Positions 2,919-19,140 of a stretch of 64,000 bases of DNA are shown here, one piece after another; the stretch's first letter is position 1; every line of letters starts with the position of its first letter. The stretch comes from Dictyostelium discoideum. Its lineage: Eukaryota. The stretch is from the NCBI GenBank assembly GCA_000004695.1, contig CM000152.2, positions 1,216,001-1,280,000 on the forward strand. The letters are read 5' to 3'. The notes beneath the pieces are model-generated. The model was not told the origin of the DNA and made no database searches. It saw nothing but the letters and a program-made list of their open reading frames with translations. The position numbers and the translations under genes are program-made.

Positions 2919-2954
2919 ATGAAAACATCAAAGGATAGTAGTAATAGCAATTCA

Positions 2955-3009
<55 letters not shown>

Positions 3010-3825
3010 GTTTAAATGGAACATACTCATCAAAATCATTATCACCACCAACATCACCAAAACAAATGAGTGGAAATAGTATAATAAGTAATAGTACTGG
3101 CAATTTAAGTAGTGGCAGTGGTAGTGGTAGTAGTAGTGGTGGAAATAAAAAATTTATAAATAGATCATTCAATACATTTATTGATTTTATAAAGAAACCA
3201 GCAAGAAGGAATTCAAAAGCACATAATACACCTCCACCTTATCCTGAAGTTGATACTGGTTTTGGATATTTTTTAGAATTAGATAGTAAACCACCAAAAC
3301 CATTTGATGAAAAGGATGATCCCATACATAATAGTACTGGTTCAACTGATAGCTGGGAAGGTGATTTAAATTCAAGTGGTGGTGGTGGTAAACAACCCCA
3401 ACAAACACAACAACAATCAAGTGGTGAAAATTTAAATAATTCTTCAGATAGAAATAACAACAGTAATGAAAATAATCAAATAGTGGACGATAATAGTAAT
3501 GTATTTAATAAAGGAGTGGTTGTACAAACAGTTCCAATGACAGAGATTGGCTTGTTTCCAGTATCTTTAATGATGGCACAACAAAGGGCTGAACATCCAA
3601 TTAATGTTGAAGATATTGAATCGGATGTCCAAACTTGTTCAATACCAAATAGTAAACCATTATATAGTTCATTAGGTTGTTCAACAAACTCTTCAAATTC
3701 TGGTTCTTCAATTTCCGCTCCAAATATTACTTTCCAATCTTTTGGAATTTCCCCTGTAAATAACAACAACAATAATAATAATAATAGTAATAATAATAGT
3801 AATAGTAATAGTAATAGTAATAGTA

Positions 3826-3906
<81 letters not shown>

Positions 3907-4792
3907 GTACTGTAAATAGTAATAATAGTAGTTTAAATAATAGCCCAAGATATCTTAATTCTTCTTCATCTCCGAGATCTATGCAACATCTATCTTCTAA
4001 AATTACAACTACTACCACCACAACAACTACTACTACCACCACAACTTCTGATGATAATAATGGTAATACTAATAATAATATAAGTAATAATAATAATATC
4101 ATTAATAATAGCAATAATAATAGTAATAGTAATAATAATAACAATAATAATATTAATAATACAAATCATAAATTTAAAACAATGGAAAAATATTTTTCAT
4201 CAAAAGAAAATTTCCCAATACCATTTCCAAAGTTAAAAGATGAATTAGGTGTAATAATTGAAAATTCAAGTAATAAAGGATATGTTGGAGGAAATAAAGG
4301 TAGTGAAGATAGAAGAAAAAAGATTGAACAAAAAAAGAAACAAGTACCAGCACCAGAAATGAAAGCAACCAAAGAGAAATTTATAGAAACCATTACTGAT
4401 CCAACCACTTTAAATTCATTTAGATCATTCATGGAGAATACACAAAGTAATGAAAATTTAGAATTCTTTTTAGAGGTTAAACGATTTAATACAATACAAG
4501 ATCAAGTCTTATTAAAACATACTTGTGATGACATTTGGAGAAGATTCTTTGATGATCTTGCAGTTACACAATTATGTGTTGAATCATCACTTAAAAAATT
4601 AATTAATAATCGTAGAGAGAATCCAACTCATTCAATGTTTAATGAGGTTTTAGATCTTTTATTAGATGATATTGTTTGTGATGCTTTTAGAAATTATATA
4701 TCATCACCTTTTAATCCAGAATGGAAAAGTGAATTTAAAAAGAAATTTACAAATAATACATATAGTACAACAACTCAACCAATTAATAATTT

Positions 4793-4824
<32 letters not shown>

Positions 4825-6296
4825 GTTCTACTCCTCCCAATAATTATAGTAGTAGTCCAATAAAACAAAGTAATATAAATAACAATAATAATAATGCTAG
4901 CAGTAGTAATATTGCAAGCAGTAGTAATGTAAATAATAATAATAATAATAGTAATGGTAGTAACACTAGTAGTTCACATCATAGAGAAAGATTAGATAAT
5001 ATAAAAGGAAATAGAGAAAGAGTAGATAGTAATGGTAAAGAAAGATCAATTGATAATAAAGATATTTTATCATTATTAGAAAGTAATTTAAGTAACCATA
5101 GTAATAGTAGTTCAAATAGTAATGGAAAAGATAAAGATAAAGACAAAGATAAAAATGAAAACACTACTGACAATTCAAATAATAATAATAATTCAAATAA
5201 TAATTTAAATAATTTAATTATAAAAAATAATTTTAATAATATTCTTCAATCACCACAAATTGTATCAAAAATTAATGAAATTTTTAAAGATTCAAATAAT
5301 TCACAATTATCAATTTCAATAACATTAGATAATGATGAAGATCCAACAATATTTCATTTGGATGAAAGTGATATGGAAAGTTTAATTGAGGAGGTTGTAA
5401 AGGATAATATATCAGTTCATACAGAGATTAGTTATAGTGATGTTTCAATTCATAAATGGATTGCTTCGGGTTCATCTGGTAGAGTTTATAATGGACAATA
5501 TAAAGGTAAGGATGTTGCAATCAAAGTACTTGGTCCTGAAGTTTGTGTACATTTCGATTTGAATGAATTCAAGAGAGAAGTTGCTTTAATGTCAATTTTT
5601 AAACATGATAATTTAGCAAGGTGTTTGGGTGCTGGTCAATATGATGACAAATATTTTCATTTGACAGAGTATTGTCACAATGGTTCTTTGTTTAGTTATT
5701 TAAGGGATCAGCGTAATAATATTAGTTTTGGTCAAAGATTACATTTTGCATTGGGTATTGCAAGAGGAATGCGTTATCTTCATTCAATGTCAATCATTCA
5801 TAGGGATTTGAAATCAATGAATATCCTATTGACAAAGAGATTAAAAATAAAGATTGTAGATTTTGGTACCTCTAGAGTAGCAAATAAATATAATATGACA
5901 ACCCATGTTGGCACCCAAGCTTGGATGGCTCCTGAGATTTTCACTTCAAGAACCTATACGAATAAAGTTGACGTTTATTCATATGCAATCATTTTATTTG
6001 AAATTTTCACTAGAAAATCTGCATACGATGAAAATGCAAATATTAACATTCCAAATATGGTGATGAAAGGTGAAAGACCAGAACTTCCAAAAGATATGCA
6101 AACTTCAATTTCAAATATAATTAAAAAATGTTGGCAACAAAAACCTTCAAATAGACCTTCATTCATTAAAATAGTTGCATATTTAGAAAGTATAATTTAT
6201 CCATCAGTTTCAAATAGTTTAGGTTTAGTTGCCTCAACTTCTTTCTCTTCTTCTGCACTTTGGTCTGGTCAAATTTTAGCACAGCCAAAAAATTAA
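2919..6296 (+). CDS. rckA: RGS-domain-containing Ser/Thr protein kinase (central RGS domain plus C-terminal TKL-type kinase domain), single exon, 1125 aa
   Basis: ATG 2919. Long poly-N/poly-T low-complexity N-terminus. RGS fold ...FRSFMENTQSNENLEFFLEVKRFN...NYISSPF. Kinase motifs GSSGRVY...AIK, HRDLKSMNILL, DFGTSR, APE. Architecture and length match Dictyostelium rckA from memory. Confidence 0.8.
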
Positions 6297-6620: not shown

Positions 6621-8201
6621 TTAATTTTTTGAAATTAAAATTGCAGAAAACATCTTAATTGATGATTCATAGTTATCACTTTTATCTTGAAATATCTTTA
6701 AATCTTCCATATAATTTTCACATGCATAAAAAATTGTATGACAATTTGAAGAACTTTTTGAACCAAAATGAACTGTACGATGATTTAAAATTTCAATTTT
6801 TGGTGGAATGAAACTTTCAATTATAAATGTTGAAATTGATAATCTCTTTATATCATATATCTCTTTTAAAGCATTCCAAATTGTTAAATCTATTCCTTTT
6901 AATTCTTTTCCACTACCAGATGATTCTAATTCGGTAGTAGTGGTATTAGTGGATGAATAAGAATTTTTTAAAATTAATCCAACATTATATAATTTTAAAT
7001 CATCTTTAATTCTATTACTAATATCTTTTATAATTGAATAATTATATCTTTTGATATTATTATAAATATTGTTTTCTTCATTTTCTTCATTTAAATATTT
7101 ATAATAGTTATAATAATCAATTGATTTAATACCTTGAGAAAATTCAATTTCACTTATTGATGGGTTGAAATTCTCTTCACAATAGCCAGTATAAATAGTT
7201 GGATTGATGAATACATTGAATTTTGAAATAAATACTACACCTTTTTCAACTGGATTTATCTTTGAAATACTTTCATTTAAAAAGAATATCCAATTTGAAT
7301 AGTTTGAGTGATATATTTCATGTGAGAAATTATTATTAAATAATAATTTTAATTTATTATTATTATTATTATATTCATTATCTTCTCTTTTTCCACCCCA
7401 AATTGGTAATAATAAAACACCAATTTGAAAATTATTAATTTGATTTTCATTTCTTTCTTTTAAATGATTTACATCATATTCAACACCTTCTTGATAAATT
7501 AAAATCTTATCAAATTCAATTTTGTAATGATCTGAAAAACTTTTTAAAGGTTTATAAATTGGTTCTTTATGATAATCATTTATTCTATTTTTATTAATTT
7601 CATTTGGAAGTTGTTGTTGTTGTTGATTATTATTATTATATGGAGTTGATAATTTTAAAATTAAATTATAATTTGGACTATTTTCATCACCACATGAAAT
7701 ATTGTCAATTAAAATTTGAGATCTTTTAGATCCAAATTTTGATTTAGAATAGGATTCATATTCAATTGGTTTTGTTATTAATAGTGATAATAATTTAGAA
7801 ATTGGTATACATTGTTGATATTGGCCAATGTTTGAATTTGTGAGAACGTATCCTCTATTTCTTCCTAAACCTTCAATAAGATTTGAAATATTATTAAATA
7901 TTTTAAAATAGTCATTACACTTTGTTAAATATTTACCAAGGTTTAATTTATTAACAATGAATAAGTTCCAGCTTTTGCATACTATTTGAATAGAGTTTAC
8001 AAAATCATATAATTCATTATGTGATAATGATTTTAATCTATAATCTAGTATTTTAATTATTAAAATATTTGCTAGTTGAATATTTTCACCTTTTAAATTA
8101 ACAATTGGTAATAAATCTTCATTTTCTTCTTGATCAAATTTTCTTGTCATTGCTGTTATATACTCTGATGATACTTGTCGATTGATTGGATGTGATGGCA
8201 T
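6621..8201 (-). CDS. hypothetical protein, 526 aa, no recognised domain
   Basis: Continuous minus-strand ORF, ATG at 8201-8199 (verified), TAA at 6621-6623. Asn-rich linkers typical of Dictyostelium proteins. Confidence 0.6.
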   Translation of the reverse strand: MPSHPINRQVSSEYITAMTRKFDQEENEDLLPIVNLKGENIQLANILIIKILDYRLKSLSHNELYDFVNSIQIVCKSWNLFIVNKLNLGKYLTKCNDYFKIFNNISNLIEGLGRNRGYVLTNSNIGQYQQCIPISKLLSLLITKPIEYESYSKSKFGSKRSQILIDNISCGDENSPNYNLILKLSTPYNNNNQQQQQLPNEINKNRINDYHKEPIYKPLKSFSDHYKIEFDKILIYQEGVEYDVNHLKERNENQINNFQIGVLLLPIWGGKREDNEYNNNNNKLKLLFNNNFSHEIYHSNYSNWIFFLNESISKINPVEKGVVFISKFNVFINPTIYTGYCEENFNPSISEIEFSQGIKSIDYYNYYKYLNEENEENNIYNNIKRYNYSIIKDISNRIKDDLKLYNVGLILKNSYSSTNTTTTELESSGSGKELKGIDLTIWNALKEIYDIKRLSISTFIIESFIPPKIEILNHRTVHFGSKSSSNCHTIFYACENYMEDLKIFQDKSDNYESSIKMFSAILISKN

Positions 8202-8202
8202 T

Positions 8203-8267
8203 TCAAACTGTGTTGAATGGTTTTGAGGAACTATTAATATCGGTTGTAGAGTTTGAAGTAGGTGTGG

Positions 8268-8329
<62 letters not shown>

Positions 8330-8697
8330 GAGATTGTAGTATTTGTGGATGATATTGATTTTGTAGATGATATTGATTTTGTAGATGATATTGGTTTTGT
8401 AGATGATATTGGTTTTGTAGATGATTTTGGTTTTGTATAGGTATATTGGTTTTGTATATGATATTGGTTTTGGATTAAGTTTTGTTGTGGTTGAGGATTG
8501 GGAAGTGCTGGTAGGTATTGTGACGTTTGAAATGATTCAAACATAAAGTTCTGTTCGTTTATTGCTGATGGAAATTGATAAGTTGAGCTTTGGATTTGAT
8601 TATTATTATTATTATTATTATTTCTACTATATGGATGGTAGGAATGATAACCCGTTTCTACTGTATTATTATTGTTTTTATTGTTATTTATACCCAT
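8203..8697 (-). CDS. low-complexity ORF (poly-N, 18-bp repeat-encoded KPISST units, poly-T) abutting the 526-aa ORF in a different frame; possibly the 5' part of the same gene with a frameshift
   Basis: ATG 8697-8695 verified; TGA at 8205-8203. The next ORF's ATG starts at 8201, leaving 1 nt between them and a frame offset of 1. No room for an intron. Confidence 0.3.
8250..8470 (-). repeat. (GTT)n of about 27 units followed by about 7 tandem copies of an 18-bp minisatellite GATGATATTG(A/G)TTTTGTA (coding poly-Thr and KPISST repeats on the minus strand)
   Basis: Direct reading of 8241-8470. Confidence 0.9.
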
Positions 8698-9450
8698 CTG
8701 GGTTGGGGAAAATAAAAAGAATTTGACGATTTTTTTTAAAAAAAAAAAGATATTTTTAAAAAAAAAAAAAAAAAAAGTAAAAAATGATTTATTTTAAATT
8801 TTTTTTTAATATGGATTTAGAATATAAATATAGAATATCAAAAATACCCAAAATGATATAAAATATAAAAAAAATGAATGAAACCATAATGATTTTCCAA
8901 TTATTTGATTTTTAGAATTTAAATATTTACTTTTCATTTTTTGTAATTGTTTTTTTTATTTTGAAGGACAATGATTAGGGAATAAATTTTAGATTTTTAT
9001 GGAAAAAAATTTTTTAATTTGATTTGTTTATTGAATTTATTTATTTTTGATTTTTAAATTAAATCTGGATTATTTTATTTGTTTTTTTTTTCAATACATT
9101 TTATTTTCTTTTTTTTTTTTTTTCATTTTATTTTCATTTTTTAATATTCATCTATTTTATTTTATATTTATTCTTTTTTTATTTTTTTAAAATGCTATAA
9201 AGGGATGATTAAATAAAAAATAAAAATAGAAATAAAATTAAAATAAAATTAAAAAGATTTGGTTTCCTTTTTTTTTTTTTTTTTTTTTTTTTTCCACTTT
9301 TTATTTTTTTTTAAATTTGTTTTTTTAATTTTTTTTTTTTTAATTTTTAAATTTTTTTTTTTTTTTTTGCTCTAAAAAAAAAGATGTTATTATTATAAAT
9401 TGAAACACTATAAAATAAAAAAAAATTAAAATAAAAATAAAATAAAAACA

Positions 9451-10525
9451 ATGTTACCGAATAATAGTCCATTTTCACCTTCATACATAAGTGGTAATAA
9501 TAATAATAATAATAATAATAGCAAAAATGAAAGATCACCACCGCCACCATTACCACCAAAACCACAACAACTCCATATAAATGATTTAGGTAGTACACCC
9601 ATTAAAAAACCAATCAATAATTCATCTATAAACACACCAGATAATAAAAATAAAAATAACAATAATAATAATAATAATAATGAACAAAAACAACAACAAC
9701 AATTTAGTTATAATTCAACACCAGTGTCAACACAAAAAAATAATACTACTACTACCACCTCAACAACAGCGACACCATCACCATCTGGATCGAAACCTTC
9801 TCTAATTAAACCACGTACTCCATCATCTATTTTTAATAATTCTAGTATTAATAGCATGAATGGTAGTAAATACAATAATTTAAATTTTAATAATAATAAT
9901 AATAATAATATACCTTCATCAGCGCAACCAAGTAATATTGGTGAAGTTATACTTGAAGAATTAGTTCCAACTAATGATTCTGACTATAGCAATAAGAATA
10001 ATTTTCCTTCTTCACCATTAACACCTGCTAATGGAATGAGAAGTACTTCTAAAACACCTCGTAGGTGGAGGTTAGTACCTGCAAATTGCACTTGTTTACT
10101 GGTATGTAATTTTAATTTTAATCAATTATTGTACATAGTATATTCTTTACCATATACCAATCTTTGTAACTACTAACAATTATTATTATTATTATTTATA
10201 ATAATAGCATGAAAATAATTTAAATAGTAGTGCAAATACTAATGCAAACAACAACAACAACAACAGCAGCAGCAATAATAATAACAACAACAACAGCAAT
10301 AATAACAACAATTCATCAAGCTTTTGTCCTAGATGTAGTCAACAAATAAATAGTGATGATAATAATAATAACAATTCAAATTTTGGTAATTTAGATGAAG
10401 CATTTAAATCAAATTATAGCGTTAATAGTAGAAATAATTCAAATATAAATAATAATAATAATAACTTTAATAACAGTGGTGGTACAGGTTTGAATGGACT
10501 TAATAATAGTAGTAGTAGTAAAAAC

Positions 10526-10573
<48 letters not shown>

Positions 10574-11075
10574 TTGAATGGTGGATTTAATAGGTCATCA
10601 TCAACAACAACAACTACCACAGCCAATAATTTTTCATATCATACCCCATTAAAAAAGGTAACGTATAAAGTTGAATGTACTGGTGATTTTGAAAGAGAAC
10701 TTGATCTTTTAAAGAATGAAGTTAGTGAATTGGAAGATGAATTTGGTTTATTAAAATTAAACTCTTCATTAAATAAAAGTCATGGTCCAATTACTACAAA
10801 TTCAACTTCAATTTTAAATGATTATAATAATCTACACAACCATCAACAACAACAACAACAACACCACCACAATAATCAAAATAATCATAATAATAATAAT
10901 AATAATAGTCATAGTGGTATTAATACTAATAGTACTGATAATAGTACTAATATACCATTTAATAGAACATCATCTACTTCTTCCACTTCAAAATCACCAT
11001 TTTTTTCAAATTATACCTCATCATATTCAATTCCAAATAATAAACTACAACAACAACAACAACAACAAAAAGGTG

Positions 11076-14924: not shown

Positions 14925-15361
14925 ATGAAACCAAATGTATTCTTATTTTTAGCTTTAATTTCAATATTATTATTCTTTAAAATTGCTTCATCTTTAGAGA
15001 TGGAGATGCAGATCACATGTAACCCAAATTGCTCTGGTACCACAGCATCTTTTAATACGACCACAGGTATGAATCTTCTTTTAAAAATTTTTTTTTTTTT
15101 TTCTTTTTTTTTAGTTTTTTATTTTTTATTTCTTTTTCATTATTAATTAATTATTTGAATAAAAAAAGGTTGCACATCTGCATCTGATTTTTGTACAAGA
15201 TTACCTCTTTACAACTATATCCATGCATATACATCATCAATTTCTGTTCAATTATTTACAGATATGAATTGTCAACAACCAGCATCAACCGCCTTTACTA
15301 TTCAATGTAATCAATGTACGATCATTGGACCAATGCATTATACATTATTAACATGTATTTA
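14925..15361 (+). CDS. small secreted cysteine-rich protein (signal-peptide-like N-terminus, about 112 aa), 2 exons: 14925..15066, 15169..15361
   Basis: ATG 14925 with hydrophobic MKPNVFLFLALISILLFFKIASS. GTATGA donor at 15067 (phase 1), AG acceptor at 15167-15168. Exon 2 encodes ...GCTSASDFCTRLPLYNYIHAYTSSISVQLFTDMNCQQPASTAFTIQCNQCTIIGPMHYTLLTCI*. Confidence 0.5.
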
Positions 15362-16002
15362 AAAAAAAAAAAAAAAAGTTGTATTTCTATATATAAAATT
15401 TTTTTTTTTTTTATCAAATAAAAAATTAAATTGGATTTTCATAGTTTCAATTATCAAAACCAATATATAAATAAATTTTGTTAAAATTTTAATGGTTTTT
15501 TTTATTATTTTAAATGTGGAAAGTTCTTATTTAATGGAAAATAATAAATAAATAAATGAATCATTTTTTTACTTTTTTTTATTCTCCACAAGTATTCAAA
15601 AAACTCTATATTTTAAAATTTCTAAAGAAAAAGCAAAAGAAAATAATTTTTTTGGACAGTTAAGGAATTTTAACTCCCCAAATTTCAAATTGGAAGCTCA
15701 AAAGCTGAATTAAAATAAAAAATGATAAAATTTTTCAACTTGCCACTTTTTAAATTTCATAAATTCTCAAGACTATTTTCAAGACTGAAAAATATTCCCA
15801 AATAAGGACTAACACAAAGGAAATGAATATTTAGGAATATTAATATCATTAAAAAAACAATGATTATACTGAAAGTGATAAACAATGAATTAAAAAATCT
15901 TATAAATTGAAAAACAGTAAGATTATGGTTTACCAAATGGTTTTTTTTTTTACTAAGTTTTTTTTTTTTTTTTTTTATTATTTCTTTTTTAAAAAAATTT
16001 GT

Positions 16003-19000
16003 TTATTGAATTTTATAAACTGTTTTCATGAATTTTAATAATTGAATATCTTGTTTTGTTAAATCTTCAGACCAACCTTCTTTAAGAGCATCCAAAGATT
16101 CACGAGTGATTTTAGACATCCATTGTTTTTTATCATCAAAGTGTCTGTAAATTGTAGTTTTAGTGTTGTTATCATCGATGGCAACAGAGACGACATCATC
16201 TTTTTTGGCGAGGGTAACATCTTTTTCGTTGAGTTTAATACCAATGACTTTACCAACATCAGCGCAATTTGATTCTGGTACACAAATTGGAGTACCAATA
16301 CGAAGAGTACCTTCTTTAACACGAACACCAACAAGAATTGGATTTGAATTTCTGAAAACGTTAGTAACCTCCAAAATACATGGCCAAACACAGATACTAG
16401 CGGTTTCAGCACGAAGTTTCTCTTTGATAGCACCGAAATGTTTCTTTAATTTCTCCTCGAATAAATAGATTGTCTCATCAGAGAGAACTTGAACTTTCAT
16501 TTCATTGGCGGCTTGAATGGCAGATTCTTCAATCTTTACATCGAAAGCCAAGAGAATTGCGTATTTTGGATCCTTATCTAACATGATACTTGCGTTCATA
16601 ATGTGTTTCTTGTGAACTGGACCAATGGCGACATTGGCGACTGGAATCTTGATCTTTTTGAGGAAATTTAAAAAGGCTTCCAAAGAACCAAGAGTAGAGG
16701 CTTGAACAGACACACCAATACCAGAGGTTTCGACATCATTGAGTACAGAATCGACTTCACGTTTAGCTTCGGCTCTAATCTTTTCGATATCGTCATTTGG
16801 ACCAACGACATGAAGTGAAGTACCTGGAACAGCTTTTTCAAGGCCTGGTGCAACGATTTTAATACCCATGGCAGCACGAATACTCTTATGATTGATGAAT
16901 TGTGATTTAACACGAGATTCACGAAGTGGTGGTGGAGTGAGTAAAGAACGAATAGAAGTTTCAATTGGACCATTGAAACCGGATACTACAATCTTATCAC
17001 CTTCATTCAAAGTACCATTTACCAAGACAACATCAATGGTTGTACCAAAACCTTCGATGACTTTAACTTCCAAGAGTGTACATTGGAGTTGATTTGTGAA
17101 TTCTACTTTATCAAGCATTAACTTTTGCATCAATTGAATGACTACCAACATTAAATCTGAAATACCTTCACCAGTGTTGGCAGAGGTTGGTACGAGAGAA
17201 ACGTATTTTCTATGATCTTTATTACGCCAGTAGAGTTCAGCATTCAATTCTTGACCGGCCAAAGCTGCAATGATATCCTTAACTTTGTAATCAAATTCTT
17301 GAGCAGCAGATTTTGATTGAATCTTGTAGGCTTCTTTAAAGTCTGTATTTACACATGGCTTCCAATCGTAAATTCTATCGACTTTATTTAAGGCAACAAT
17401 GAATGGTGTTTTTCTCATACGTAAGAGATTGATGGACTCTAAGGTTTGAGCTTGTAAACCATGCATAATATCAATGACTAAAATTGCCAAATCACAAAGA
17501 CCTGAACCTCTTGAACGTAAATTGTTGAAAGATTCATGACCTGGTGTATCAATGAGTAAGAGACCTGGTAATTTAAAGTCCATTTTAATCTTTTCAGCAA
17601 ATGATTTGGTTTGTTCTTTAATTGCATCGACTGGAATAAAAGAGGCACCAATTTGTTGGGTGATACCACGTGCTTCACCACCTTGAACGTTGGTATTACG
17701 AATTTTATCCAAAAGACTTGTCTTACCTGTATCGACATGACCTAAAATACAAATGATTGGTGAACGATATGATTTATCTGCAAAGGTTGTAGTTGGATCT
17801 GTAGTTGGAATGAGTGCTGCTGCGGCTGCTGCTGCGGCTGCTTTTGCTTTCTTCTTTTCCTCTTTTGCTGCTAATCTCTGTGCTTCCTCTTCCTCCTCTT
17901 TTCTCTTGGCCTCCTCTTCCTTCTTCTTTTGAATCTCTTCAACGGTTTCATAATCATCATTATCCCAACTATCCATAACCTCAACTACGTCGTCCTTTGG
18001 TGCTGATGTTGGTTCTTCAATCTTTAATTTTTCGACTGATTCTGTAATACTTGAGACTTGATTTTGTTTTTTACCTCCACTCTTTGTTTTATTTGTTGAT
18101 TTTTCTTTCTTTTCACCGACTGCTGAAATGTTTACACCCAATTTTGCTAATTTTGCCATTCTATCAGCTTCGGCGGCTGCGCCAGCTTGTTTCTCTTTCT
18201 TTTCTGCTCTCTTTTTAGAGTTTTCAATTGACTTTAATCTTGCTTTTTCATCATCAATAATCTTTTGTTCAGCAGCACGTTTCTTCTCTTCCTCTTCTCT
18301 TATACGTTTTTCCTCCTTTTCACGTGCAATTCTTTCTTCTTCTTGTCTTTGTTTTAATAAAAATCCACTCAATACCTCTGGTTCCTCTGGTTTCTTTGGT
18401 GCTGGTTTTTTAGCTTGTTGTTTTGCTGCTGATGGTTTTGCTGCTGGTGGTTTTTTGGCATTATTTTTTTTATTATTATTATTTTGTGTTGGTTTGGTTG
18501 GTTTCTCTTCTTCCTCTGATGATGATGATTCTTCTTCACTTTCAGAAGATGATTCAACAGCTGCTGCTTTTTTAGCTGGTGCTTTTTTATTTTGTTTTGC
18601 AGCTGGTTTTGATGGTTTCTTTTTTGTGTCCTCTTCAGATGATGATTCTTCAGATTCTGATTCACTCTCTTCTGATGATGATTCTACAACTGGTTTCTTT
18701 TTATTATTATTATTATTGGTTGGTGCTACTTTCTTTGATTGTTTTGCAGCTGGTTTTGATGGTTTCTTTTTAGTATCTTCTTCAGATGATTCTTCAGATT
18801 CTGATTCACTCTCTTCTTCTTCTGATGATGATGATTCTACAACTGGTTTCTTTTTATTATTGGTTGGTGCTACCTTTTTTGATTGTTTAGCAGCTGGTTT
18901 TGATGGTTTCTTTTGAACTTCTTCTTCAGATGATGATTCTTCAGATTCTGATGATGATTCATCTACTGGTGCAAATTTAGAAGTTGGTTTTTTTTTTGAA

Positions 19001-19140
19001 ATTGGAATATCATCACTATCACTATCACTATCTGATTGTTGTTGACCTTTTTTATGAAGTTTTTCTGCTTCTTCACGATCTTTATCAGCTTCACCACTAT
19101 CCCAATAATTATCTTTTCTAACTCTTTGTTTTGGACCCAT
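16003..19140 (-). CDS. eif5b: eukaryotic translation initiation factor 5B (eIF5B / IF2 homolog), single exon, 1045 aa
   Basis: ATG 19140-19138 verified. Acidic/Ser/Lys-rich N-terminal half with three about 50-aa repeats. GTPase domain GHVDTGKTSLLDKIR...DTPGHESF...NKVD, followed by IF2-type beta-barrel domains. TAA at 16003. Confidence 0.9.
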   Translation of the reverse strand: MGPKQRVRKDNYWDSGEADKDREEAEKLHKKGQQQSDSDSDSDDIPISKKKPTSKFAPVDESSSESEESSSEEEVQKKPSKPAAKQSKKVAPTNNKKKPVVESSSSEEEESESESEESSEEDTKKKPSKPAAKQSKKVAPTNNNNNKKKPVVESSSEESESESEESSSEEDTKKKPSKPAAKQNKKAPAKKAAAVESSSESEEESSSSEEEEKPTKPTQNNNNKKNNAKKPPAAKPSAAKQQAKKPAPKKPEEPEVLSGFLLKQRQEEERIAREKEEKRIREEEEKKRAAEQKIIDDEKARLKSIENSKKRAEKKEKQAGAAAEADRMAKLAKLGVNISAVGEKKEKSTNKTKSGGKKQNQVSSITESVEKLKIEEPTSAPKDDVVEVMDSWDNDDYETVEEIQKKKEEEAKRKEEEEEAQRLAAKEEKKKAKAAAAAAAAALIPTTDPTTTFADKSYRSPIICILGHVDTGKTSLLDKIRNTNVQGGEARGITQQIGASFIPVDAIKEQTKSFAEKIKMDFKLPGLLLIDTPGHESFNNLRSRGSGLCDLAILVIDIMHGLQAQTLESINLLRMRKTPFIVALNKVDRIYDWKPCVNTDFKEAYKIQSKSAAQEFDYKVKDIIAALAGQELNAELYWRNKDHRKYVSLVPTSANTGEGISDLMLVVIQLMQKLMLDKVEFTNQLQCTLLEVKVIEGFGTTIDVVLVNGTLNEGDKIVVSGFNGPIETSIRSLLTPPPLRESRVKSQFINHKSIRAAMGIKIVAPGLEKAVPGTSLHVVGPNDDIEKIRAEAKREVDSVLNDVETSGIGVSVQASTLGSLEAFLNFLKKIKIPVANVAIGPVHKKHIMNASIMLDKDPKYAILLAFDVKIEESAIQAANEMKVQVLSDETIYLFEEKLKKHFGAIKEKLRAETASICVWPCILEVTNVFRNSNPILVGVRVKEGTLRIGTPICVPESNCADVGKVIGIKLNEKDVTLAKKDDVVSVAIDDNNTKTTIYRHFDDKKQWMSKITRESLDALKEGWSEDLTKQDIQLLKFMKTVYKIQ
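18540..18960 (-). repeat. three tandem repeats of about 150 bp in the eIF5B N-terminal region (about 50-aa acidic Ser/Glu plus KKKPSKPAAKQSKKVAPTNNKKKPVVE unit)
   Basis: Protein-level repeat is visible in the 1045-aa translation. The DNA units are near-identical. Confidence 0.8.

Follow-up and report, generated by a model that had tools for sequence, protein, structure and literature searches.

One Extra Base in a Coding Minisatellite Splits the DDB_G0278939 Gene of Dictyostelium discoideum into Two Open Reading Frames, Most Likely Through a Sequence Error

Introduction

Automated gene models of the Dictyostelium discoideum strain AX4 are known to mask frameshifts in an open reading frame (ORF) "by truncating the ORF" (Goldberg et al., 2006; PMC1420674). 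Of the disrupted loci described in that study, 15 were true kinase pseudogenes and 4 were traced to a faulty genome sequence (Goldberg et al., 2006; PMC1420674). A later study listed 1,916 candidate discrepancies with the reference, common to AX4-derived lines, and ascribed them either to reference errors or to differences of the ancestor clone; only a single true new mutation was found, and the mutation rate was put at 2.9e-11 per site per generation (Saxer et al.; PMC3466296). Here, we describe a gene of this kind, DDB_G0278939, which lies on the minus strand of a 64,000-nucleotide (nt) stretch of D. discoideum DNA (GCA_000004695.1, contig CM000152.2, positions 1,216,001 to 1,280,000; hereafter the window, in whose coordinates all positions are given). 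The gene resembles the masked AX4 loci in that a single frameshift splits a good ORF and the annotated model is truncated (509 residues from Met183 as against 691), and it differs from them in that its product is not a kinase and in that the lesion sits in a coding minisatellite, where the periodicity of the repeat pinpoints it. The data show a single gene and fix the position of the lesion. We are highly confident in reading the locus as one minus-strand gene that runs from the ATG at 8697 to the TAA ending at 6621, encodes 691 amino acids (aa) when intact, and is broken by an extra base at 8442 that is most likely a sequence error.

Two other known systems lie close to this locus. The glutamine- and asparagine-rich (Q/N-rich) tracts of D. 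discoideum are likewise built from CAA, AAC, and AAT codons and from in-frame minisatellites, and neighboring genes in the window are of the same make; the present gene differs from such tracts in having one repeat unit out of register, and is otherwise in no way unusual. The other system is a 691-aa gene in a second D. discoideum assembly, which has the same neighbors and the same DNA except at two sites, but is intact.

Two Overlapping Frames

An original prediction, made by a model that read the letters of the window and a list of its ORFs, had noted two same-strand ORFs separated by one nucleotide and offset by one frame, and both its coordinates and its frames are correct. The window has a Dictyostelium-like base composition (23% GC). 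Within it, the downstream ORF of 526 aa (ORF2) occupies the +1 frame relative to the upstream ORF of 164 aa (ORF1), as (8697-8201) mod 3 = 1, and the ORF1 stop is separated from the ORF2 ATG by a single minus-strand A at 8202. The ORF2 frame stays open for 91 codons 5' of the ATG at 8201, with no ATG among them, and is closed only by a TAA at 8477-8475. Both frames are thus open together over approximately 275 nt (8477-8203), and a frame change anywhere in this zone would therefore join ORF1 to ORF2.

An Intact Allele in an Independent Assembly

The comparison assembly, GCA_054883475.1 (contig CM142509.1, 6.43 Mb), is an independent assembly of D. discoideum that is 99.8% identical. The corresponding locus was found through exact look-ups of two neighbors, an RGS-domain kinase (2919-6296, plus strand; locus L001) and eIF5B (16003-19140), which are encoded identically in this assembly and in the window. 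At this locus, GCA_054883475.1 calls a single intronless 691-aa gene of 2076 nt (L001:9703-11778 and L006:20434-22509), and the two look-ups agree. A global alignment of the gene between the window and GCA_054883475.1 reveals two differences only: the window carries an additional base at 8442, and the second codon, altered at 8693, specifies Gly in the window and Asp in the other assembly. Removal of the base at 8442 from the window yields a 691-aa ORF that joins both parts and differs from the protein of the other assembly by G2D alone, which bears out the suggestion that the two ORFs are a single frameshifted gene. The intact gene is already resolved in public, given that GCA_054883475.1 calls the 691-aa form, and the phenomenon is an ordinary one.

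A wider comparison of the two assemblies covered positions 1-29179 of the window (29 kb; L001 and L006) and returned 26 differences, consisting of 10 substitutions and 16 indels. Clean substitutions number five in the 29 kb, or approximately 1.7e-4 per base. Most indels (14/16) are intergenic changes in the length of long A/T homopolymers, in 13 of which the other assembly is the shorter; over all indels it is the shorter one in 15 of 16. Just two indels fall outside homopolymers, at 1784 (intergenic) and at 8442. The differences are unevenly spread, with 5 of the 26 clustered at 8442-9329 (8442, 8693, 8848, 9259, and 9329) and none between 1860 and 8441, a pattern that points to a local stretch of low quality in one or other assembly.

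The homopolymer differences vary in size: in 13 of the 14, the run in the window exceeds that in the other assembly by 1 to 10 bases. Judging from this pattern, the long-read assembly looks like a case of systematic homopolymer compression, and the lengths that it gives for intergenic A/T runs would not be trustworthy. Apart from those in DDB_G0278939, the sole coding difference in the 29 kb is a substitution at 10817 (plus strand; A in the window, T in the other assembly), which changes Asn to Tyr in a large coiled-coil gene of low complexity, whose product has 1297 aa in the other assembly.

Repeat Periodicity and the Position of the Lesion

The zone in which both frames are open consists largely of repeats. 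Tandem Repeats Finder (TRF) reports an 18-bp minisatellite of 7.2 copies at 8342-8472 (92% matches), in keeping with the seven copies originally noted; the (GTT)27 run reported alongside them is in fact shorter, with 21 pure GTT copies at 8267-8329 (22.7 copies according to TRF). The minisatellite units begin at 8472, 8454, 8435, 8417, 8399, 8381, and 8363, and their spacings are accordingly 18, 19, 18, 18, 18, and 18 nt. Unit 2 (CAAAACCAATATACCTATA, 8454-8436) is the odd one, being 19 nt long and therefore one base over. In this 19-nt form, the unit reads TATACCTATA at 8436-8445 (CAATATACCTATA with its flanks), whereas the 18-nt form reads TATCCTATA (CAATATCCTATA with its flanks). The other assembly lacks the minus-strand A at 8442, and its unit 2 is the 18-nt CAAAACCAATATCCTATA, encoding QNQYPI.

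The codon phase of the repeat changes at the same place. Units 1 and 2 are in the phase of ORF1 (QNQYHI QNQY...) and units 3-7 in that of ORF2 (QNQ[NY]HL), with the switch falling exactly at the 19-nt unit. From the sequence alone, the 19-nt unit and the phase switch therefore predicted a lesion at approximately 8442-8436, and not at 8200-8210. The site originally proposed, at 8195-8210, thus proved to be misplaced: the extra base lies approximately 240 nt upstream of it, in minisatellite unit 2.

On this basis, the origin of the two ORFs can be described as follows. The extra base at 8442 lengthens unit 2 from 18 to 19 nt and causes the reading frame to slip from codon 86 onward, with the repeats then being read as TKPISS and polythreonine (polyT) in place of QNQYHL and polyglutamine (polyQ). 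The shifted reading runs on to the first out-of-frame stop at 8205-8203, next to the codon for the internal Met166 (8201). ORF1 in its shifted form consists of 85 native and 79 out-of-frame residues. Because the out-of-frame stop adjoins the Met166 codon, the gene presents itself as two abutting ORFs. That a single base (8202) separates the two ORFs is coincidental, and reflects only the place where the first out-of-frame stop (ACA GTT TGA) abuts the true-frame codons CAG TTT GAA ATG. The coordinates of the gene and its features are collected in Table 1.

Table 1. Features of the DDB_G0278939 locus in the window.
Feature	Position	Strand	Remarks
Whole gene, DDB_G0278939 locus	6621-8697	minus	2077 nt in the window; 2076 nt (691 codons and stop) when intact
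ORF1	ATG 8697 to TGA 8205-8203	minus	164 aa
ORF2	ATG 8201 to TAA 6623-6621	minus	526 aa
Non-repeat N-terminal coding segment, residues 1-74	8476-8697	minus	Start ATG 8697-8695; GC, codon score, and open run
Substitution relative to the other assembly	8693	minus	GGT (Gly2) in the window, GAT (Asp2) in GCA_054883475.1
TAA in the ORF2 frame	8475-8477	minus	Upstream edge of the doubly open zone 8477-8203
18-bp coding minisatellite, seven units	8346-8472	minus	True frame QNQYH[IL]; TRF and unit spacing/phase
Extra base	8442	minus	A on minus, T on plus; first base of codon 86; +1 frame change
Triplet repeat (CAA)n	8263-8330	minus	PolyQ (22 Q) in the true frame, polyT when shifted; sequence and TRF
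TGA of the shifted reading	8203-8205	minus	First out-of-frame stop, not a true gene end; part of TTT GAA in the true frame
ATG taken as ORF2 start	8199-8201	minus	Internal Met166 of the intact 691-aa protein
ATG used by the AX4 annotation	8148-8150	minus	MTRKF..., 509 aa; Met183 of the intact protein
Putative F-box-like N-terminal motif (NILxIKILxY...LxxVCKSWN)	7932-8078	minus	About ORF2 residues 42-90; alignments
Putative degenerate 2OG-Fe(II)-oxygenase/prolyl-hydroxylase-like core	7197-7526	minus	About ORF2 residues 226-335; HxD...H...R replaced

Coding Character of the Upstream Segment

Another proposal had been that the upstream ORF is non-coding 5' sequence that merely happens to be open. 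The repeats themselves are uninformative on this question: as G is absent from the minus strand at 8300-8499, they are open in all three frames, and their openness therefore says nothing about coding. The non-repeat segment that precedes them, at 8697-8476, does carry a signal. Its GC content is 0.29, as compared with 0.13-0.15 in the 200-600 bp upstream of the ATG. Under a codon table trained on 14 long ORFs from other parts of the window, the per-codon score of this segment is +0.19 when read in the ORF1 frame, as against -1.0 and -2.0 in the remaining two, a contrast of the kind seen for ORF2 itself (+0.37 in frame vs. -1.7 and -1.0). A run of 74 open codons at this composition has a probability of approximately 0.004 (73 of 20,000 shuffles). 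Taken together, the GC content, the in-frame codon score, and the open run contradict the proposal, and a non-coding upstream ORF is effectively excluded. The arrangement of the surrounding genes fits a start at 8697, with the gene convergent with the kinase and divergent from a gene starting at 9451, across a 750-bp stretch of approximately 12% GC.

The Annotated Gene Model

The AX4 model for DDB_G0278939 (XP_641979.1, Q54XQ1) is a 509-aa protein beginning with MTRKF that corresponds to ORF2 residues 18-526 with 100% identity. Neither the 164-aa ORF nor the 691-aa form is present in the AX4 annotation, and the 164-aa ORF was not found in the annotation anywhere searched. The annotation hides the break by truncating the gene, which is what an automated caller would yield on a frameshifted sequence. 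Exact look-ups of both window ORFs and of the annotated 509-aa protein returned no record in the assemblies. A curated correction or pseudogene flag for DDB_G0278939 was looked for and not found, and literature searches on the gene identifier and on the accession GCA_054883475.1 likewise found nothing. Of the first two Met codons in the 526-aa ORF, the model was also seen to start at the second (MTRKF) and not at the first (MPSHP, 8199-8201); no reason for this choice was found.

Sequence Error or Genuine Lesion

With the single gene and the site of its lesion established, the nature of the extra base has to be weighed. On balance, it is probably a base-calling or assembly error in the AX4-reference-like sequence of the window. 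The rate of discrepancy between the two assemblies (five clean substitutions in 29 kb) is of the same order as the reference discrepancies reported previously (approximately 1e-4; PMC3466296), which favors an error, and the local cluster of differences at 8442-9329 counts in the same direction. The competing possibility, which we hold to be distinctly less likely though still to be taken seriously, is a genuine strain-specific frameshift, whereby the AX3/AX4 lineage would carry the extra A at 8442 and the gene would be a young unitary pseudogene or a hypomorph. The product from the ATG at 8697 would then be 164 aa long, comprising the 85 native and 79 out-of-frame residues, and the F-box-like/prolyl 4-hydroxylase (P4H)-like body would largely not be made. 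In its favor, the extra base is present in the window sequence as given, and it stands outside a homopolymer, the commonest context for errors. AX4 does have real frameshifted pseudogenes behind truncated models, and among the loci described by Goldberg et al. (PMC1420674) the real kinase pseudogenes (15) outnumber the sequence errors (4). The gene, moreover, evolves fast, probably encodes a non-catalytic member of its family, and lacks a close annotated orthologue, so that its loss could be tolerated. Nevertheless, the extra base is the sole lesion in the 2 kb of the gene, unaccompanied by any other disabling change, the two assemblies differ at a rate that matches the one reported for the reference (PMC3466296), and, at a mutation rate as low as 2.9e-11, real differences between close laboratory lines should be rare (PMC3466296).

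Several other considerations weigh against the preferred reading as a whole. If GCA_054883475.1 derives from a different natural isolate, the indel at 8442 could be an ordinary polymorphism. It may be the chromosome-scale Nanopore and Illumina assembly of AX2-214 described by Holland et al. (PMC12745789); that assembly has the AX4/AX2 karyotype and is 99.5% identical to AX4 at another chromosome-3 locus (PMC12745789). The other assembly is itself not free of errors, given its systematic shortening of homopolymers. No sister-species orthologue was retrieved to confirm conservation of the N-terminus, and the N-terminus of the Dictyostelium purpureum homologue is short. Between error and loss of function lies an intermediate case, to which we assign a very small chance, in which the AX4 lineage is truly frameshifted and yet makes the F-box-like/prolyl-hydroxylase-like body, through reinitiation at UGA-A-AUG or from an internal promoter.

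In a further explanation, the sequence of the window is correct and the fault lies in the other, Nanopore-based assembly, where an accidental deletion error would have fused an upstream repeat ORF, non-coding or separately coding, to a gene of 526 or 509 aa. The deletion-prone character of that assembly (shorter in 15/16 indels) speaks for this, as do the family members in other species, which begin shortly before the F-box-like motif, and the absence of the upstream ORF from the AX4 annotation. We consider it very unlikely all the same: the deletions of the other assembly hit long A/T homopolymers, of which 8442 is not one, and a chance loss would have had to strike the 275-nt doubly open zone and in addition restore the 18-nt period, for which the probability is approximately 0.02 given two non-homopolymer indels in 29 kb. 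The segment 8697-8476 further shows coding-type GC content and frame-specific codon usage; under this explanation, a 500-bp block of 30% GC would sit within an intergenic region of approximately 13% GC. Programmed recoding, either as +1 ribosomal frameshifting in the overlap or as termination-reinitiation at UGA-A-AUG serving as regulated coupling, is suggested by the stop and ATG lying one base apart and by the open overlap of approximately 275 nt, but it has next to no probability. A 99.8%-identical genome has a plain in-frame gene, so that the split is not a conserved design; UGAAAUG in the intact allele forms the internal codons UUU GAA AUG, so that the stop and start are not kept as cistrons; and the repeats that make up the overlap leave all three frames open by virtue of their composition. 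By eye, the residues around the ORF1 stop (GUU UGA A) also appear unlike the known +1 shift sites. An intron spliced over the junction, joining the ORF1 frame to the ORF2 frame, scarcely merits belief either. On paper, 46 GT...AG pairs restore the frame; none of the 46 has a GTAAGT-like donor, and the candidates have GC contents of 0.24-0.40 and are for the most part 380-580 nt long, whereas Dictyostelium introns have less than 15% GC and usually measure 60-250 nt (PMC1420674). G is entirely missing from the minus strand at 8300-8499, and the gene in the other assembly is intronless and exactly 2076 nt long. The earlier remark that no intron fits the junction therefore holds after enumeration, as none of the frame-restoring pairs is Dictyostelium-like. 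One gene interrupted by an extra base at 8442 remains the best account of the locus.

The Protein and Its Family

As judged from sequence features, the intact protein is predicted to comprise a Q/N-rich N-terminus of approximately 165 aa containing (QNQYH[IL])7 and Q22, an F-box-like motif, and a prolyl-hydroxylase-like 2-oxoglutarate (2OG)-oxygenase core devoid of the iron-binding residues. The N-terminus holds 50 Q and 28 N. In the true frame, Lys and Arg are absent from residues 26-172 (about 8622-8180), the whole stretch from R25 to R173, and the N-terminus is therefore invisible to tryptic proteomics. The shifted frame, for its part, would yield the short tryptic peptides PISSTK and SISSTK, which offers a simple discriminator by mass spectrometry.

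A HMMER search against 1.8 billion representative proteins retrieved only five relatives, which come from D. purpureum, Dictyostelium citrinum, Dictyostelium dimigraforme, and a Thecamoeba transcriptome. The family alignment displays three conserved elements: an N-terminal motif (NILxIKILKY...LSLVCKSWN), a central core, and a C-terminal FSAIIIS. No Pfam F-box match was obtained for DDB_G0278939, and the sole Pfam evidence for the motif is a sub-threshold F-box-like match in the D. purpureum homologue (E 0.032, 14.5 bits vs. a cut-off of 24.3). In the paralogues P0003 and P0004, PF13640 (2OG-FeII_Oxy_3) scores above threshold (34.7 bits vs. a cut-off of 27) and the ligand pattern GGHFDxHID...H...R is present. 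For the present gene, neither the 526-aa nor the 691-aa protein matches PF13640, and at the ligand positions of the alignment HID, H, and R give way to NHL, S, and V, respectively. The D. purpureum protein DICPUDRAFT_74907 also lacks HxD...H...R and has no Pfam match. The AlphaFold model is of low confidence (mean predicted local distance difference test score, pLDDT, 55.5), and its best Foldseek matches are weak (E at least 1.9e-3, template modeling (TM) scores of 0.2-0.5); all of them are prolyl hydroxylases (P4H and PHD2). A sequence profile search of solved structures gave nothing meaningful.

The body of the protein is thus probably non-catalytic and related to a dictyostelid family in which an F-box-like motif accompanies a prolyl-hydroxylase-like core. 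With the dictyostelid F-box-like/2OG-oxygenase proteins, such as DICPUDRAFT_17092 of D. purpureum and KAN0018403.1 of D. citrinum, it shares the N-terminal motif, a beta-rich core, and FSAIIIS, at 27-33% identity; in contrast to these, both it and DICPUDRAFT_74907 have HxD...H...R replaced and fall below the Pfam threshold. Within this small dictyostelid/amoebozoan family (homologues P0002-P0008), the protein encoded at 6621-8201 and DICPUDRAFT_74907, lacking HxD...H...R, are probably pseudoenzymes.

The Q/N-rich N-terminus of approximately 165 aa sets the D. discoideum protein apart from the rest of the family. In the D. purpureum homologue, about 43 residues precede the motif, and the DNA upstream is 8% GC. 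With no counterpart in the homologues, the N-terminus would be a lineage-specific low-complexity extension of a kind common in D. discoideum. In D. purpureum, the syntenic slot after the RGS-kinase orthologue (L002:12786-13280, minus strand) is occupied by an unrelated Cys-rich gene. The family members of D. citrinum and D. dimigraforme are not syntenic with DDB_G0278939 and are therefore paralogues. A search for paralogues within the window found none, and scans of metagenomes with the protein and with a 30-nt repeat-junction pattern gave no hits. The Cys-rich gene of D. purpureum happens to encode 164 aa as well, a match in length that is a coincidence; the homologue of DDB_G0278939 is on another scaffold (L003).

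Other Observations in the Window

A mini-exon upstream of the gene was considered by eye, with ATGAAAA/GTAAAT at 8937 spliced to a C-rich tract/CAG before the ATG at 8697 (8698-8937, minus strand). It was rejected, since the product reads ATG AAA AAT GGG TAT AAA TAA and stops after six codons. Elsewhere, at 14925-15362 on the plus strand, a small gene encodes a 111-aa Cys-rich protein with a hydrophobic N-terminus that is probably secreted. This gene has one intron of 102 nt (GTATGA...AAAAAG), which is a useful local reference for what a genuine Dictyostelium intron looks like.

Implications

A practical rule follows from the locus: where a coding minisatellite contains a unit not divisible in length by three, that unit locates a frameshift much more closely than does the abutment of two ORFs. 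Should the extra base prove real in AX4, it would add one more difference between the AX4 and AX2 laboratory lineages, in a probably non-catalytic F-box-like/prolyl-hydroxylase-like gene. If, in addition, AX4 made the body only, its version would be without the Q/N-rich, prion-like N-terminus, and AX2-type strains would make the full protein, which would amount to a natural experiment on low-complexity domains. The practical gain is a corrected model of DDB_G0278939, with a value limited to annotation. The Q54XQ1 model is probably truncated by 182 residues, the true product having a Q/N-rich N-terminal domain, and knock-outs, tags, and expression constructs based on the reference model would take an internal Met as their start.

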